From the NCBI GenBank assembly GCA_017500845.1, contig JAFVXY010000005.1, forward strand, positions 57,246 through 121,245: a DNA stretch of 64,000 nucleotides, written 5' to 3'. The notes under the pieces are model-generated. The model was not told the origin of the DNA. It worked only from the letters and a program-made list of their open reading frames with translations, and did no database searches. Below, one piece after another: positions 5,263-63,067 of this stretch. Made by a program: the position numbers and the translations under genes. This DNA comes from Clostridia bacterium. GTDB taxonomy: Bacteria > Bacillota > Clostridia > Christensenellales > Pumilibacteraceae. Position 1 is the stretch's first letter. The number at the start of each line of letters is the position of its first letter.

Positions 5263-6906
5263 ATGTCTATCGTTGTAACTCTTTGCACACCGCAAATCAA
5301 GCCGGGTGCGGTAAAATCTAACACTCAAAGTATACTTGCTTGCATCGCTAAGGCAAAAAAATCGGACGTTGTTGTTTTTCCGCGGCTGTGCATTACGGGA
5401 GCAACCTGCTCGGGAATGTTTAGTTATCCTCTCCTTACCAATGCGGCAGGTGCGGCGCTTGAGCAAATTGCGGCGGCGGGCGGCAACAAAACGGTGATAA
5501 TCGGATTGCCCACAGTAAAGGACGGAAAGGTTTTCGACTCCATTGCAATAATCAAAAACGGAACGACTGCCATATACTCGCCTAAAAAGGGCATGACCGA
5601 TATTGCCGCAAGCCCATTGTGCTACGGCGAGGACATTATTCCCGACCTTGACGAGGGCGGACTTAAGGTGCGTGTACTATCGGACATTGACGAAAAGGAG
5701 GCTATCGGCGCTGACCTTGTGATTATACCCACCGCCTACCCCACGTACATTGGCGGATTAGAGGACGTATTTAGTCGCGCAAAAATGCTTCGCTCGGTTG
5801 CTATCGTTAGCGCCGGCAAGGGTGAATCGGTAAGCGGAAAAATTATGAGTGGGGACAAAATCGTATGTACGCTTGGCAAAATTGAAGAATATGCAGGCTT
5901 CGACGAGGAATCGGTTACGGCTAAGCTGGGCGTTCCAAAGAACAAGCCCTTGCCGCCAAAGTCGCCTATGCGCGAGGTTTCACTTCTTCCGCAAAGCGAC
6001 GACGAGTGCGCCCAAATGTACGAGCTTATGGGCAGAGGCGTCCTTGGCAGAATGCGGGAAATCGGTACAGACAAGGTTATTTTGGGACTAAGTGGCGGAC
6101 TGGATTCTACCAACGTGCTGGTCGCTCTTACCATGGCGTTTGATAAATACAAGCTTGACAAAAAGAACATCATTTGCGTGACTATGCGCGGTGGTGCTTC
6201 GTCCAAGCGCACGCAAGACAACTCTGCCGCACTTATTGATGGCTATAAGGTTACATCGTACAATATTCCCATAGACGCCGCAGTTACCTTGCATATGCGC
6301 TCTATTGCTCACGAGCAAAAGGACGTCGTGTACGAGAACGCACAAGCTCGTGAACGCACCCAAATTTTGCTTGACCTAAGCAACAAGTTTAACGCCCTTA
6401 TGGTAGGTACGGGCGACTTGTCCGAAATCTGCCTTGGATTTTCCACCTTTGGCGGTGACCAGCTGAGTCAATACAACCCTAACTGCTCGATTACCAAAAC
6501 GGCTATGCGCAAAATGCTGAAATACTATACTACCACAAAGCACGCAAAGCCTGTAAGCAAAATAATTGAGGATATACTCTCTACCCCAATATCTCCCGAG
6601 CTATTAAGTGGTCAAGAAACAGAAGAGATCCTCGGGCCGTATAATATCCACGACTTTTATATTACAGAAATCGTTGCAAAGAAATTAGCACCCAAGGACG
6701 TAATGGAGGACGCCATCAACCAATTCGCCATAACTCCTCAAGCCGCCGAAAAATATATGAAGACCTTACTGAATAGACTTTTTAAGTTCCAGTTCAAGCG
6801 CAACTTCGGTCCTGACGGAGTACAGATGTTCCCATACGACCTCACTGACCTAATCGTTCGCTCGGACTTTTCTCCCGAGCTTTGGCTTGACAACTGCGGA
6901 TTGTAA
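5263..6906 (+). CDS. nadE: NAD+ synthetase with N-terminal CN-hydrolase-like domain (glutaminase residues degenerate)
   Basis: C-terminal synthetase domain with GLSGGLDS P-loop and ARERTQIL, GTGDLSE blocks. I place the start at ATG 5263, preceded by AGGAG at 5251-5255; the tracked GTG at 5203 lacks an SD. Confidence 0.9.
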   Translation: MSIVVTLCTPQIKPGAVKSNTQSILACIAKAKKSDVVVFPRLCITGATCSGMFSYPLLTNAAGAALEQIAAAGGNKTVIIGLPTVKDGKVFDSIAIIKNGTTAIYSPKKGMTDIAASPLCYGEDIIPDLDEGGLKVRVLSDIDEKEAIGADLVIIPTAYPTYIGGLEDVFSRAKMLRSVAIVSAGKGESVSGKIMSGDKIVCTLGKIEEYAGFDEESVTAKLGVPKNKPLPPKSPMREVSLLPQSDDECAQMYELMGRGVLGRMREIGTDKVILGLSGGLDSTNVLVALTMAFDKYKLDKKNIICVTMRGGASSKRTQDNSAALIDGYKVTSYNIPIDAAVTLHMRSIAHEQKDVVYENAQARERTQILLDLSNKFNALMVGTGDLSEICLGFSTFGGDQLSQYNPNCSITKTAMRKMLKYYTTTKHAKPVSKIIEDILSTPISPELLSGQETEEILGPYNIHDFYITEIVAKKLAPKDVMEDAINQFAITPQAAEKYMKTLLNRLFKFQFKRNFGPDGVQMFPYDLTDLIVRSDFSPELWLDNCGL

Positions 6907-58956: not shown

Positions 58957-59346
58957 TTATTCCTTATGGCAGCCGCAGTCGCAGTGGTCGCCCTCGCAGT
59001 CGCAATCTCCGTCACATTCGCCGTCGCATTCGCCATCGCAATCCTCACAGCCGCAGTCGCAATGCTCGTGAGCAGTTCTGAGATACTCCTCGAATACAGC
59101 GTTCATAAGCTCCTCGCTTTCTACGGGAACGATAAGCTGAGTTTCGTCATCCTGCTCCTCGAGCTTGCAGATAATAACCTCGTCCTCGCCGATTCCCTCT
59201 ACTTCCTCTGCGGGCGAAAGCAATACGTAAAAATTACCCTCGTGCTCTACGCAAGCTACCTCAACAAACTTGATGGGGTTGCCCTTATCATCGTAAAGAG
59301 TAATAAGCTCGTCATCGTCAAAAATTTCGCAGTTTTCGTTTTCCAT
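58957..59346 (-). CDS. DUF1292 (YrzB-like) protein with C-terminal Cys/Asp/Glu-rich tail
   Basis: The N-terminal 95 aa fit the DUF1292 pattern (ITLYDDKGNPIKFVEV....GNFYVLLSP....EVIICKL). It follows ruvX as yrzB follows yrrK in B. subtilis. The tail is CDCGCEDCDGECDGECDGDCDCEGDHCDCGCHKE. Confidence 0.85.
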   Translation of the reverse strand: MENENCEIFDDDELITLYDDKGNPIKFVEVACVEHEGNFYVLLSPAEEVEGIGEDEVIICKLEEQDDETQLIVPVESEELMNAVFEEYLRTAHEHCDCGCEDCDGECDGECDGDCDCEGDHCDCGCHKE

Positions 59347-59791: not shown

Positions 59792-59967
59792 AAATACCTC
59801 CGACTGTATTATAACACAACTTTTGCCATTTGCAAACTGATTTTGGCAAAAATTGTATATCTAATAAAAAATGTTTTGCGGATTTTTGTCACGAGCGTGA
59901 ATTTGTACAAAACCGACGTATTACAAACAAAACGCTATTTTGATTTATAACTAAAATGTCCTTTTGC

Positions 59968-60672
59968 CTAATATTCCACGCTAAAGCTAATTTCGGGATA
60001 GCCGAACGAAAGCTCTGTTTTATTTTTCGTACAGTCCCACTCACGTGTTACTACTTTGTCGTAATCCGTAAAGGATACTATCAAGCCATTAATATAGCTA
60101 TAGTTTATAGGTTTACCCGTTTCTCTATCTATTTCTATATGGCTGTAATAATACCGCAAATCGGATAAAGCAATCCCCTCGTTTGCCGCCTTTTGTTTGA
60201 ATTTTTTTATGATTGTTGCAAAGCTTTTGTACAAGCAAAAGGACACCTTGTTCATTTTCTTTTGTTTGGTTACATTAAAAAAAAGTACCTTCTTTTGCTC
60301 CTCGGTGACAATGTCCTTGCAGGTGTAGCTGGGCTTATCCGAAAAAGAGAACACCGGCGAGCTTATGTTCATTTCACGTAACGTATTTTTCCAGTTATCT
60401 CTTTCCTTTCGTAGCTCCAAATCAGTCGTATAGTATATATCCTTATGTATATCCTCTATTTTATAATATCCTTTGATGACCCTCTTGCCGTTTTCATACA
60501 AAAACTCATCTTTTTTTGCCAAATCGAGAATGTGCTTTTTTAATTGCTCCACCATTTTTTCGGCGAGATTATCAAAATATCTTTCGCCAAATTTCTCTAA
60601 TTCTTTATAAATGGCTTCGGTATCGTTACGCTTATCGGTGGTATCCTTTAACTGCTGTAAAAAATCAGACAT
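59968..60672 (-). CDS. Hypothetical protein (234 aa), no recognisable domain
   Basis: ORF with AAGGGGG SD and its own promoter. K/E/Y-rich, with no TM segment or signal peptide. Confidence 0.7.
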   Translation of the reverse strand: MSDFLQQLKDTTDKRNDTEAIYKELEKFGERYFDNLAEKMVEQLKKHILDLAKKDEFLYENGKRVIKGYYKIEDIHKDIYYTTDLELRKERDNWKNTLREMNISSPVFSFSDKPSYTCKDIVTEEQKKVLFFNVTKQKKMNKVSFCLYKSFATIIKKFKQKAANEGIALSDLRYYYSHIEIDRETGKPINYSYINGLIVSFTDYDKVVTREWDCTKNKTELSFGYPEISFSVEY

Positions 60673-60704
60673 AATGCCCCCTTCATATCATATTTTATAG
60701 CTTC

Positions 60705-60733
60705 ATTATAGCGCATAAACGTTCAAAACACAA
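60705..60733 (-). promoter_or_regulatory. Sigma-A-like promoter of the 234-aa ORF
   Basis: Minus strand: TTGTGT, 17-nt spacer, TATAAT. Confidence 0.45.
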
Positions 60734-60802
60734 GTAAATTTTGCCGCACTTCAACGCAAAAAAAGGAACGGGCTATTGGACGGGGCTTTTGCGGAAAATT
60801 TT

Positions 60803-60849
60803 TAACCAAAACAAAAAGTCATTACAAGATTTTTCCAATAATGACTTTT
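60803..60849 (-). terminator. Intrinsic terminator after the 253-aa/45-aa bicistron
   Basis: 11-bp stem AAAAGTCATTA/TAATGACTTTT with a 14-nt loop, followed on the minus strand by TTTTGTTTTGGTT. Confidence 0.75.
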
Positions 60850-60870
60850 CTTTTGTGTCAATGCCGTATT

Positions 60871-61008
60871 TTACCACGGCTTATTCTTCTTTTTTTCCTC
60901 TGCGCGTTTTTTTGTATAATATCCTATAATAGCCGCCCTTTGCTTTTTCTTTGCTTCGGGGGTTCTAGCCTTGACGTATTTTCCTTTTCCAAGAGGTTTC
61001 TTTCTCAT
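60871..61008 (-). CDS. Untracked 45-aa hyper-basic peptide, translationally coupled to the upstream regulator gene
   Basis: MRKKPLGKGKYVKARTPEAKKKQRAAIIGYYTKKRAEEKKKNKPW (18 K/R, 3 E). Its ATG overlaps the upstream TGA (ATGA). GAGGAGG lies 7 nt upstream and the terminator follows. Confidence 0.6.
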   Translation of the reverse strand: MRKKPLGKGKYVKARTPEAKKKQRAAIIGYYTKKRAEEKKKNKPW

Positions 61009-61766
61009 TTTAGTTCCTCCTCATAAGAAATAACAGTATCGTATTCTTCATTTTCGTAGTATTGCTGTAATAATTCAACTAATTTATTACTTGGCTTGTA
61101 TTTCCTTTCAACCACGTACGAATCTCTTATCATACATAGCGGTATTGCTCCAATGACTCTGTTTGTCAAATCATATCCAAGCAAATAATTGCTTTGGTCA
61201 TAAGTAAAGCCGTAAACATAATGAAAGGCAAACATTCTGATTGATTTACCGTTTACGGTAGCGTGAAATATTTTTCCCGTTTCGCAAGCTTCAGCATAAT
61301 TATATAGCTCTTCGTCGAATGCTAACGCTTCCCTTTCGTATTGCGGAAGTCTTGAATATTCGTTCAAGAGTCCACGGATATATTCGGTCGTAGTTTGTCC
61401 CGTTATCTTTGTTTCGGATTGTTCAATCTCGTCAAACACAGCGTTTTGCTTCGTTGACGGTCTGAACCATATAACTTCCTCTAAATCTTGCAGTTCTGCA
61501 TCTGAAAAATACACTTTGTCTATTACCGTGTTTACGCACTCGTAAATTCTTTCAGTATCATCTCTTGCAAAGTCCTCGCTTAATATTCTATGTATTTCAT
61601 CGCGCCGCGACTTGCGAAAATGCAATAAATTAGGTATTAGCTTATTTAGGAGTCTGTTCAGATTAGGCTCTTTCCCCTTTTTTAAGAAACCAAACTTTTC
61701 AGCATCGTTTTGAAGAATACAAAGCACAAAATCCGACACGGATAACTTTATAATGGACGAAATCAT
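61005..61766 (-). CDS. Putative RHH-like / WYL-like transcriptional regulator (253 aa)
   Basis: The N-terminus IIKLSVSDFVLCILQNDAEKFG...EPNLNRLLNKLIPNLL fits a strand-helix-helix pattern. The C-terminus IRMFAFHYVYGFTYDQSNYLLGYDLTNRVIGAIPLCMIRDSYVV resembles the WYL-domain pattern (x-YL-x-GY ... R-[IL]-D/R-x). This is a motif-level call only. Confidence 0.6.
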   Translation of the reverse strand: MISSIIKLSVSDFVLCILQNDAEKFGFLKKGKEPNLNRLLNKLIPNLLHFRKSRRDEIHRILSEDFARDDTERIYECVNTVIDKVYFSDAELQDLEEVIWFRPSTKQNAVFDEIEQSETKITGQTTTEYIRGLLNEYSRLPQYEREALAFDEELYNYAEACETGKIFHATVNGKSIRMFAFHYVYGFTYDQSNYLLGYDLTNRVIGAIPLCMIRDSYVVERKYKPSNKLVELLQQYYENEEYDTVISYEEELK

Positions 61767-61783
61767 CTCATCACCTCAACAAT

Positions 61784-61918
61784 ATTTTACACTATGTAAA
61801 CCCAAATGTCAACTATTTAAGAATAAATATGATGTTTTGTAAACCCAAAATGAAAAAACATAGATGCTATTATTTTTAATTTATTCGTGATATAATCTTC
61901 TTGCAAGACAAAGTCTTG
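61784..61918. promoter_or_regulatory. Divergent control region: two promoters, a 14/15-nt direct repeat x2, and a 6-3-6 palindrome
   Basis: Minus strand: TTGACA (61812-61807), 17-nt spacer, TAAAAT (61789-61784). Plus strand: extended -10 TGATATAAT (61888-61896). Repeats TGTAAACCCAAATG (61795-61808) and TGTAAACCCAAAATG (61838-61852). Palindrome CAAGAC-AAA-GTCTTG (61904-61918). Confidence 0.55.
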
Positions 61919-61945
61919 ACATAGCTCAAAGGAGGTGATACAATT

Positions 61946-62257
61946 ATGAATAAGAAGCCTTACAAGCAGTTTTACCACGGAAAAGGGATTACAAATAAGC
62001 AGTTTGGACAAAAGCCTATGAAATGGTTTCCGTGGACATACCTTGATACATATAATGCCAAAACGGGAAAATTCCGTTCTAGAAGAAAATTCGGTTCTGA
62101 TGGTTGGGCATACAAGGATATGGACACCGCAGACAATCATAAACCCTACGACCACGTACACGACATACGCAAGGGCTATAGATTTGATGATAGAAAGCCG
62201 AACAAAGCAGAAAAGAAAGAATTCAAAAAAGCAAAAAAGAAAAGGAGATTTTTATAA
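61946..62257 (+). CDS. Small highly basic protein (103 aa), candidate toxin
   Basis: AAAGGAGGTG SD. About 30 K/R residues, with the segment GKFRSRRKFGSDGWAYKDMDTADNHKPYDHVHD and the tail KKEFKKAKKKRRFL. Confidence 0.72.
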   Translation: MNKKPYKQFYHGKGITNKQFGQKPMKWFPWTYLDTYNAKTGKFRSRRKFGSDGWAYKDMDTADNHKPYDHVHDIRKGYRFDDRKPNKAEKKEFKKAKKKRRFL

Positions 62258-62526
62258 TGATTGATTTAACAAAATATAATATTGATGATGACGATGTTCA
62301 TTTTCTTTTGCAAACCGAAGATTGGTGTATTAACGGACAGAGTGAAATAATTTTGGAATACAAAGGTAAATCCTTTGTTTTAGAGCCTCACGGTAAAGCT
62401 GTACGAGTTTATGCGTACGGTGAAGCTTTAGGAGATTATGAAAACTTTGATGATTTGTTGCTTAATTATAAAATAGACGACAAACCTCTCATTGAATTGA
62501 TAAAAGATTTGGAATACGGAGATTAA
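62257..62526 (+). CDS. Small acidic protein (89 aa), candidate immunity/antitoxin partner
   Basis: The ATG overlaps the upstream TAA (TAATG). About 21 D/E versus about 8 K/R. Confidence 0.72.
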   Translation: MIDLTKYNIDDDDVHFLLQTEDWCINGQSEIILEYKGKSFVLEPHGKAVRVYAYGEALGDYENFDDLLLNYKIDDKPLIELIKDLEYGD

Positions 62527-62836
62527 ATATTTATTTTTGACAAAAGAGCAAGCCGCATTTGACTAGTTAAATGTAAATGGACACGAACTCATATACAACT
62601 AAAAAAGAAAGCAAATCGGTTCGTAGCCAAAATGCTCTCTCTTTCTTCTGTTTGTAAAGCTTTTGCCGGCGCATAAGTGAAATTATGTTTTCCACTTCGC
62701 CGATGGCAAAAATTCATTGCTCACAGGATAATTCCACTTACTAAGTAAGCTTAACCTGCCCGTAAGTGCAAATTTAGTTATGCGTGTTCTCCGTTTTGGA
62801 TAACACGCTAAGCTGTTCCCTTTTTTGTTTTAAGTA

Positions 62837-63067
62837 CTACAATCCGTTGTTTTCGGGCTGACATTCACAGCCGCTGAAGCTACTTGCCGATTTATTTTCG
62901 CCGCAATCGCAGCCGCACTCACAGCCGCTGTTGTTGCTACTCATAACCGACTCCGCCTTGGACTTAATGTCGTCAACAACCTTTTCCGCCTTGGGGCACA
63001 TCTTAACCAAGAACATGCCGCCCACAAGTCCTAATCCTACGCCTAACGTAAAAGCAGTCTTAAGCAT
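62837..63067 (-). CDS. 76-aa single-pass membrane protein with C-x-C cysteine tail
   Basis: AAGGAGG SD. N-terminal Gly-rich TM helix (LGVGLGLVGGMFLV). Tail GCECGCDCGENKSASSFSGCEC. Immediately downstream of nifS-nifU. Confidence 0.72.
   Translation of the reverse strand: MLKTAFTLGVGLGLVGGMFLVKMCPKAEKVVDDIKSKAESVMSSNNSGCECGCDCGENKSASSFSGCECQPENNGL

Follow-up and report, generated by a model that had tools for sequence, protein, structure and literature searches.

RspWYL1 (6OAW), an accessory protein of Cas13d in type VI-D CRISPR systems, consists of an N-terminal domain containing two ribbon-helix-helix (RHH) motifs, an Sm-like WYL domain in the middle and a dimerisation domain at the C-terminus. 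The protein binds single-stranded RNA and boosts the RNase (PMC6547453). We examined a stretch between ruvX and the nifS-nifU operon of a Clostridia bacterium (positions 59800-62830 of the window, by which we mean the whole 64,000 nucleotides of DNA analysed) and found there a cassette of four small genes, of which the largest encodes a 253-aa protein, p253, with WYL1 as its best whole-length structural match. The others are p45, a microprotein gene following p253, and the divergent pair p103 and p89, a candidate toxin and its candidate immunity protein. We think it rather probable that the cassette is a WYL-regulated intracellular toxin-immunity module of a toxin-antitoxin or abortive-infection-like kind.

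In its predicted structure p253 follows the N-terminal plan of WYL1, two RHH-type units and then a WYL barrel, and both proteins adjoin a nuclease effector (a putative one in the cassette) in gut Clostridia. The two differ in size, 253 aa against about 390 aa, as p253 lacks the C-terminal dimerisation/RNA-binding domain, and they have no detectable sequence similarity. Nor is p253 beside Cas13d or CRISPR, its neighbours in the window being p45, p103/p89, p234, ruvX and nifU. For WYL1 no report mentions sequence-specific operator boxes or a conserved 45-aa basic partner, both of which go with p253.

DriD is a WYL regulator that switches on a toxic nuclease. With DriD-bapE, and with BrxR, CapW and PafBC, the cassette has in common a WYL barrel, a regulator gene divergent from its would-be targets, and intergenic operator repeats. 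Those regulators, however, have an N-terminal winged helix-turn-helix and a WCX domain, where p253 has RHH-type units and no WCX, and the cargo of the cassette is an exchangeable two-gene toxin-immunity pair, with a conserved microprotein in addition. The omega-epsilon-zeta systems consist of a toxin, a neutraliser and a distinct RHH regulator that binds repeated short promoter boxes. The cassette too has candidates for a toxin and a neutraliser along with a separate RHH-type regulator, but this regulator has a sensor domain and is divergently transcribed, the toxin gene comes first, the toxins are unrelated to zeta, and there is a fourth conserved gene, p45. Type II toxin-antitoxin systems are operons of two genes whose antitoxin both neutralises the toxin and represses the operon. 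The cassette has an overlapping basic/acidic pair, in which the toxin is first and the acidic partners show no DNA-binding domain by Pfam. MuF polymorphic toxins of temperate phages, with their immunity genes, have been described by Jamet et al. 2017 (PMC5576092); the p103 domain ends Phage_Mu_F and Phage_min_cap2 proteins, with a p89-related open reading frame (ORF) following in one phage locus, whereas p103 itself is free-standing with no MuF part, is encoded in the chromosome instead of a phage head module and would have a regulator of its own. A full-text literature search of incomplete coverage returned no description of this WYL/toxin-immunity arrangement, and an earlier description is possible.

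The regulator, its small partner and their control region

Homologues of p253 number 335, all from uncultured Clostridia and of constant length (252-254 aa), with 60-89% identity among the matches listed. An AlphaFold2 model built from 37 homologues (predicted local distance difference test, pLDDT, 87.8; predicted template-modelling score, pTM, 0.84) has a beta-alpha-alpha unit at residues 6-65, a second at 97-138, linker helices, a five-stranded barrel at 165-222 and a terminal helix; as modelled, p253 is two RHH-type units joined to an Sm-like WYL barrel. The top match in a Foldseek search of the PDB was 6OAW (E 5e-8; query-normalised template-modelling score, TMq, 0.60; 269 columns), and next came DriD, PafBC, BrxR and CapW with their WYL domains (probability about 1.0, root-mean-square deviation 1.9-2.8 A over ~82 residues). 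An RHH/WYL-like regulator was what the first-pass annotation of this DNA had proposed for the 253-aa ORF, and the predicted structure supports it. The WYL-containing abortive-infection protein AbiGi, which is of similar size (PMC4012209), was considered as a relative and set aside, being unmatched by PADLOC or Pfam. The annotation of the NCBI metagenome-assembled genome (IKC48_01600) starts p253 at an internal GTG, giving 169 aa without any of the N-terminal RHH part; the window itself has an uninterrupted frame for all 253 aa, in agreement with every homologue.

Directly after p253, in essentially all of about 50 species, comes a homologue of p45, sharing the motif (Y/F)VKAKTPEA(R/K)KKQKAAIAxYYxKK. 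Conservation of this motif across loci indicates that the micro-ORF is a real gene; the first-pass annotation had noted it as a basic micro-ORF coupled to the regulator, and it now appears as the regulator's conserved partner. No family match and no PDB match were found for p45. We predict that it is a nucleic-acid-binding partner of p253.

The control region between p253 and the toxin gene is 69-78% identical in nucleotide sequence between loci, even where the toxins are unrelated, and its features were taken from an alignment of about 50 loci. An 8-bp box with the consensus G(G/A)T(A/T)(G/T)ACA lies at -36 from the p253 start, inside the spacer of the p253 promoter, and a second direct copy lies at -80, at a spacing that is constant (43-44 bp) throughout the alignment. 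A third box, inverted (TGTCTACC), is present in most clades at -104, immediately beside the toxin promoter's -35. The core of the box varies jointly between copies, from GTTTACA in the clade of the window to GTTGACA in L007 and GTAGACA in about 35 other loci, and within the 64 kb the window's 11-mer TTGGGTTTACA occurs at just its two sites. Such a pattern is that expected of operators for a co-evolving, sequence-specific DNA-binding protein, for which p253 is the sole candidate. The position of a box inside the p253 promoter spacer argues for autorepression, and a box next to the toxin -35 would suit repression of the toxin operon as well as its activation.

Downstream of the toxin promoter, the hairpin at the 5' end of the toxin mRNA has fixed outer pairs (CAAG...CTTG), with inner pairs and loop length that vary with compensating changes. 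A promoter scan had offered TTGACA-17-TACAAT upstream of p103; this was rejected, since the conserved -10 in the 50 loci is at 61891-61896, and what looked like a -35, TTGACA, forms the hairpin's 3' arm.

The exchangeable pair of small genes

Upstream of p253 and divergent from it there is nearly always a gene for a small basic protein followed by one for a small acidic protein. The small basic proteins at the toxin position belong to at least five unrelated families, and every family comes with an acidic partner of its own; across loci the type of p89-position partner tracks the type of toxin. One toxin type, in L020 and L060, matches Pfam EndoU_bacteria above the gathering score (30.2 bits vs 25.3). 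For the commonest alternative type DUF4258 was considered and not accepted, the matches being sub-threshold and limited to 3 of 20 members (best E 0.003). All of the cassette toxins are stand-alone proteins of 100-170 aa in which Pfam finds no N-terminal domain, and all are without a signal peptide and without a trafficking domain, be it LXG, RHS, MuF or another; nor does any locus have secretion genes linked to it. Among the acidic partners Pfam finds no DNA-binding domain. The pair thus has variable toxin domains common to different protein contexts and a partner gene after the toxin, as polymorphic toxin systems do, and it lacks the N-terminal trafficking or secretion domain of their toxins. 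The first-pass annotation had listed the basic and acidic genes as a divergent, overlapping pair and had spoken of a small toxin-like module next to the regulator; judged by their sequences the two do behave as a toxin-immunity pair across loci.

The cargo and the p253 platform have, by comparison of sequences, separate histories, because their identities diverge between pairs of loci. Between L018 and L019 p253 is 69% identical, the toxin 96% and the immunity protein 92%; between the window and L027 the values are 52%, 78% and 75%; and in L024 and L025 p253 is 89% identical and the toxins are unrelated.

We found 109 homologues of p103 and no Pfam family for it. Its AlphaFold2 model (pLDDT 87) is beta-rich with a C-terminal helix, and the conserved residues include RRK, D58, D60, H70 and H72. 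A likeness to the PT7 DNase (8OWU) was not significant (Foldseek E about 1, with no profile match). A profile search with the p103 family among 1.84 billion representatives gave 81 clusters, of which the nearer ones are stand-alone proteins of ~105 aa and the distant ones carry the domain as the C-terminus of longer proteins. Three of these long proteins have N-termini assigned to Phage_Mu_F (P0302) or Phage_min_cap2 (P0305 and P0289), and the motif RR.YG.DG...D.D..DH..P..H...H.HDW is common to all of the p103-type domains compared. Against BFVD, p103 aligned with a phage 'minor capsid protein' at TMq 0.60. In sequence terms, p103 is a free-standing copy of the domain that ends phage MuF/minor-capsid polymorphic toxins.

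p89 matched phrog_3711 (E 2.9e-8), a PHROG without an assigned function and the only PHROG match among the five proteins of the stretch, and a relative of it was found in the one phage locus that we examined for a p89-like ORF behind a p103-like domain (L150, 3001-4625). This is a phage head module with a terminase, an SPP1 portal and a minor-capsid-2 (MuF-type) protein with a p103-like C-terminus, whose gene sits between the portal and scaffold genes. After that gene, overlapping it by 4 nt, comes an ORF of 82 aa that has a C-terminal motif in common with p89 (hhalign probability 74% and E 2.8e-5 over 28 columns). The MuF C-terminus and the 82-aa protein are likely, from these matches, to be a toxin-immunity pair; toxin domain and partner thus move together between contexts.

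Insertion, distribution and neighbouring features

Relatives that lack the cassette (L064-L068) have flanks 93.5-98% identical to those of the window on both sides, in the gene order nifS-nifU-p76-p234-ruvX-DUF1292-S2, with ~160 nt between p76 and p234. Their homology to the window ends at 62821 and restarts at 60677, with 60678-62820 of the window (2143 nt) replacing 138 nt of the relatives. As p234 stands between p76 and ruvX in relatives that have no cassette, the alignment identifies p234 as resident and 60678-62820 as the inserted segment, and the stretch as a composite. There is no target-site duplication at the junctions, 138 nt having been substituted, and there are no terminal repeats of note at the ends of the insertion. 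A global alignment of the 138-nt empty site with the insertion was uninformative, and a metagenome scan based on RuvX found only distant relatives (<=54% identity) and did not extend the empty-site comparison.

The inserted DNA begins on the left with the terminator of p45 and the promoter now driving p234. The terminator hairpin (60802-60861), an AU-rich stem of 18 bp followed by a U-run, folds at -22 kcal/mol (z-score -4.5) and is convincing as an intrinsic terminator. The p234 promoter, on the minus strand, has TTGTGT at 60733..60728, 17 nt, and TATAAT at 60710..60705. Its block is weakly similar to the promoter of the relatives (36/78 matches vs 26.5 +/- 2.9 in shuffles) and may be a much-diverged homologue of it, so the left end of the insertion is uncertain by about 70 nt, from 60678 to about 60750. 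In the spacer between p45 and p234, on the plus strand and antisense to both genes, 60717-60780 scored 23.4 bits as a Glutamine-II riboswitch against a gathering score of 33, probably by chance.

The resident p234 comes close to being an orphan: a search of 5.8 billion proteins gave just 3 homologues, 89-100% identical. Its ratio of nonsynonymous to synonymous substitution rates (dN/dS) is 0.25, vs 0.05-0.08 for ruvX, and on this comparison it is a real gene evolving comparatively fast. No family match came from Pfam, PADLOC, PHROGs, NCBIfam or PDB sequence searches.

The right end of the insertion is a composite non-coding element, collinear at 77% nucleotide identity with L029 9012-9360, which lies downstream of p45 in a distant genome. 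Three hairpins make up its first part: a palindrome (GCATTTGAC..GTTAAATG), a short one in the middle, and a long one (AGAAAGAGAGA/TCTCTCTTTCT) with a T-run; copies, inverted relative to the window, adjoin the cassette in L004, L011, L012, L013 and L015, and 6 of the 32 predicted pairs have compensatory changes. The second part, which ends at the insertion junction, resembles Rfam Gut-1 (RF01706) on the minus strand at a sub-threshold 28 bits against a gathering score of 50 (31-33 bits for its counterpart in L029) and folds there at -39.6 kcal/mol (z-score -3.4); it may be a diverged relative of this orphan gut-metagenome RNA motif. The whole element is possibly one or more small RNAs or a terminator block.

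A scan with one genome per GTDB species found p253 in 52 species, mostly Christensenellales-like metagenome-assembled genomes whose sources are the guts of ruminants, rabbits and humans. When the window is compared with the other loci, nucleotide homology covers exactly 60867-62515, from the stop of p45 to that of p89. Only 26 of 1485 locus pairs have a flanking protein in common, and in 47 of 47 loci the cassette has a lower GC content than its host (mean 0.34 vs 0.47, with hosts ranging from 0.31 to 0.63). Because the flanks are so rarely shared and the cassette is always the more AT-rich, the sequences suggest DNA that circulates horizontally. A prophage or phage as its vehicle was rejected for lack of support in the phage-genome and viral-contig collections: tblastn with p253 and p89 gave no match in phage genomes, and scans of viral contigs with p253, p103 and p89 gave one weak partial match or none, p253 being absent. 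No large effector gene lies beside the cassette in any of about 55 loci. In L012 a tRNA gene (6806-6879) lies ~370 nt past the immunity gene, a link absent from the window and from most other loci. Contigs of the same species from independent metagenome assemblies break inside the islet at 60236, 60560 and 61932 (L001/L002, L003), which fits strain-level presence or absence of the cassette confusing the assemblers.

Most of what the first-pass annotation had reported of the stretch as a whole can be upheld. The GC content is 0.31-0.41 in 300-nt windows across 59800-62800 vs 0.43-0.55 in the flanks, as its remark on AT-richness implied, and by segment it is 0.353 in the cassette, 0.362 in p234, 0.381 in 62527-62820 and 0.473 in the remaining window. 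The five ORFs it had listed (p234, p45, p253, p103 and p89) are all present at the positions it gave, with ATGA overlaps in both the p253/p45 and the p103/p89 pairs, and so are the strong terminator it had placed after the 45-aa ORF and the TTGTGT-17-TATAAT promoter of the 234-aa ORF. It had recognised no integrase or transposase, and none was found among the window proteins searched by Pfam or PHROGs. No curated family of Pfam, NCBIfam or PADLOC is reached by any of the five proteins, in keeping with its statement that none belongs to a family it could name with confidence, and PDB sequence searches gave nothing usable. Its proposal that the islet is accessory DNA is borne out by the ruvX-to-nifS interval of the relatives, where the insertion is absent between flanks of 95-98% identity. 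The description of the ORFs as orphans holds as regards named families, but not as regards homologues, which p253, p103 and p45 have in quantity. Of three supposedly self-contained units, the first and third belong to one cassette with a shared control region, and the second is resident DNA; the idea of a single five-gene system therefore fails, p234 being present in cassette-free relatives as well.

No Rfam family reaches its gathering score within the window, and the sub-threshold matches to Gut-1, Glutamine-II and snoR38 were treated as weak or due to chance. There are no tRNA genes within the window. Downstream of nifU, p76 (62837-63067, minus strand) encodes a 76-aa protein that has a single hydrophobic helix and a tail rich in Cys (CECGCDCG...CECQ). 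This protein belongs to no family, is kept at the same position in L064-L068, and might bind metal as a partner of the Fe-S assembly operon. The DUF1292 protein beside ruvX (58957-59346, minus strand) has an unusual Cys/Asp-rich tail, HCDCGCEDCDGECDGECDGDCDCEGDHCDCGCH. Coordinates of the main features are given in Table 1.

Table 1. Features of the cassette and adjoining DNA, in window coordinates (aa, amino acids; pI, isoelectric point; nt, nucleotides; RBS, ribosome-binding site)
Feature	Position	Strand	Description
p234	59968..60672	minus	resident, lineage-specific gene outside the mobile cassette; present in L064-L068
Left junction segment	60678..60870	minus	p45 terminator hairpin and promoter now driving p234
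Cassette core	60871-62526	p45/p253 minus, p103/p89 plus	1.66 kb, four genes
p45	60871..61008	minus	45 aa, pI 10.6, translationally coupled to p253
p253	61005..61766	minus	253 aa, pI 5.0, WYL1-like by predicted structure
Control region	61767..61945		179 nt between p253 and p103
p253 promoter	TTGACA 61812..61807, 17 nt, TAAAAT 61789..61784	minus	near-consensus
Two direct operator boxes, TTGGGTTTACA	61795-61805 and 61838-61848	minus	putative
Toxin promoter, extended -10 TGaTATAAT	61888-61896	plus	conserved across loci
Toxin-mRNA 5' hairpin	61904-61918	plus	arms CAAG/CTTG
Toxin RBS	61930-61935	plus
p103	61946..62257	plus	103 aa, pI 10.2, candidate toxin, stand-alone domain
p89	62257..62526	plus	89 aa, pI 4.2, candidate immunity protein/antitoxin; start overlaps p103 stop (ATGA)
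Composite non-coding element	62541..62825	plus	three-hairpin part 62541-62661 and Gut-1-like part 62668-62825

Proposed function and alternative explanations

The arrangement that we propose has a constant platform, p253 with co-translated p45, and a divergent, exchangeable cargo of a basic toxin followed by an acidic immunity protein. p253 would bind the 8-bp boxes in its own promoter and beside the toxin promoter, and would in this way regulate itself and control the toxin-immunity operon. By analogy with DriD, CapW, BrxR and WYL1, its WYL barrel may sense a nucleic-acid-type signal, such as single-stranded DNA or RNA arising from phage infection or DNA damage, and the signal would alter the output of toxin. 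The toxin would act within the producing cell, since it has no export signal or trafficking domain, and it is probably a nuclease, as one variant is EndoU and p103 has a metal-type motif, D..D/H.H; growth arrest would follow unless the toxin were titrated by p89. As for p45, it probably gives the acidic p253 a basic nucleic-acid-binding surface, or else binds the 5' hairpin of the toxin mRNA. The net role would be that of a regulated module of the toxin-antitoxin or abortive-infection type which stabilises itself while spreading horizontally. That the cassette acts against phages in particular we hold with clearly less confidence than that it is such a module. The sequence comparisons and models show how the cassette is built, that it is conserved and mobile, which folds its proteins match and how the operator boxes are laid out; the binding of p253 to DNA, the signal, the direction of regulation, the toxicity and a part in phage defence are inferred from these.

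Several observations count against this proposal. None of the six proteins searched against the PADLOC-DB v2 defence models had a match at E<=1, hence there is no tie to a validated defence system, and p103 has no significant relative of solved structure by Foldseek. The toxicity of p103, its neutralisation by p89 and the DNA binding of p253 are predictions. The WYL assignment of p253 rests on predicted structure, as at the sequence level hmmscan gave no match to Pfam WYL (PF13280) at E<=1 and no PDB chain was matched, and p253 is acidic (pI 5.0). WYL1 itself prefers single-stranded RNA over double-stranded DNA and is not known as a transcription factor (PMC6547453). The toxin-mRNA hairpin of the window is weak (-8.9 kcal/mol, z-score -0.5). 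Finally, we found no recombinase, target-site duplication or terminal repeats that would account for its movement.

The cassette might instead be a selfish addiction module and nothing more, a toxin-antitoxin system of three or four components that resembles omega-epsilon-zeta with its separate RHH regulator and serves only its own retention and spread, with no defence role and no external signal. Its AT-richness in every host, the scattered insertion sites, its presence or absence between near-identical strains and the lack of a match to known defence models in PADLOC would all suit such an element, as would the combination of a toxin, a neutraliser and a separate RHH-type regulator. A conserved WYL sensor-type barrel and a conserved microprotein exceed what addiction modules need, however, and the WYL regulators studied so far answer nucleic-acid signals in damage or phage responses; single-copy chromosomal sites, moreover, offer addiction little to act on. 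We regard this explanation as unlikely.

Still somewhat less probable, in our estimation, is a post-transcriptional role, in which p253 is not a transcription factor and together with p45 binds single-stranded RNA and presents substrate to, or licenses, the nuclease toxin, as WYL1 does for Cas13d, p45 standing in for the basic C-terminal domain on which WYL1 depends to bind RNA. It has in its favour that the best whole-length structural match, WYL1, binds single-stranded RNA, disfavours double-stranded DNA and boosts an RNase (PMC6547453), that p253 is acidic and without that C-terminal domain while p45 is extremely basic, that one toxin variant is an EndoU RNase, and that the hairpin at the 5' end of the toxin mRNA is conserved. 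The co-varying boxes at fixed helical spacing at both promoters, on the other hand, are the signature of sequence-specific DNA binding, with p253 as the only candidate, and toxins unrelated in fold make one conserved protein-protein interface for activation unlikely.

An interbacterial weapon, with the small toxins killing competitors after release or export, as classical polymorphic toxins do, and p89 protecting kin, we consider highly improbable: the toxin domains are those of polymorphic toxin families (MuF C-termini, EndoU_bacteria), the gene order is toxin then immunity and the cargo is diversified, but the toxins are small stand-alone proteins lacking export or trafficking sequences, and no locus has linked secretion genes.

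Whichever function the module has, it is very small and easily cloned, and it couples a sensor-type regulator to interchangeable toxins, with about 50 natural variants that separate the fixed parts (regulator, microprotein, operator boxes and 5' hairpin) from the cargo. It places a WYL1-like protein outside CRISPR, apparently the first case in the literature searched, and could help to explain WYL1-type sensing. A MuF-associated C-terminal domain without a Pfam family also gains a likely toxin role, and p45 is one more of the few microproteins whose genomic partner is clear. The hosts are Christensenellales-like gut bacteria, almost entirely uncultured. A broader and rather doubtful extension of the toxin-immunity module is that the p253-p45 platform is a universal plug-in, a WYL1-like nucleic-acid sensor to which p45 adds the missing part in trans and which can license any toxin-immunity pair recombined behind the fixed promoter, hairpin and start codon. 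If that were true, WYL1-Cas13d would be one case of a wider set of WYL1-type switches for RNA- or DNA-degrading effectors, and the cassette would be an abortive-infection system that is new, self-contained and widespread among the uncultured Clostridia of the gut.

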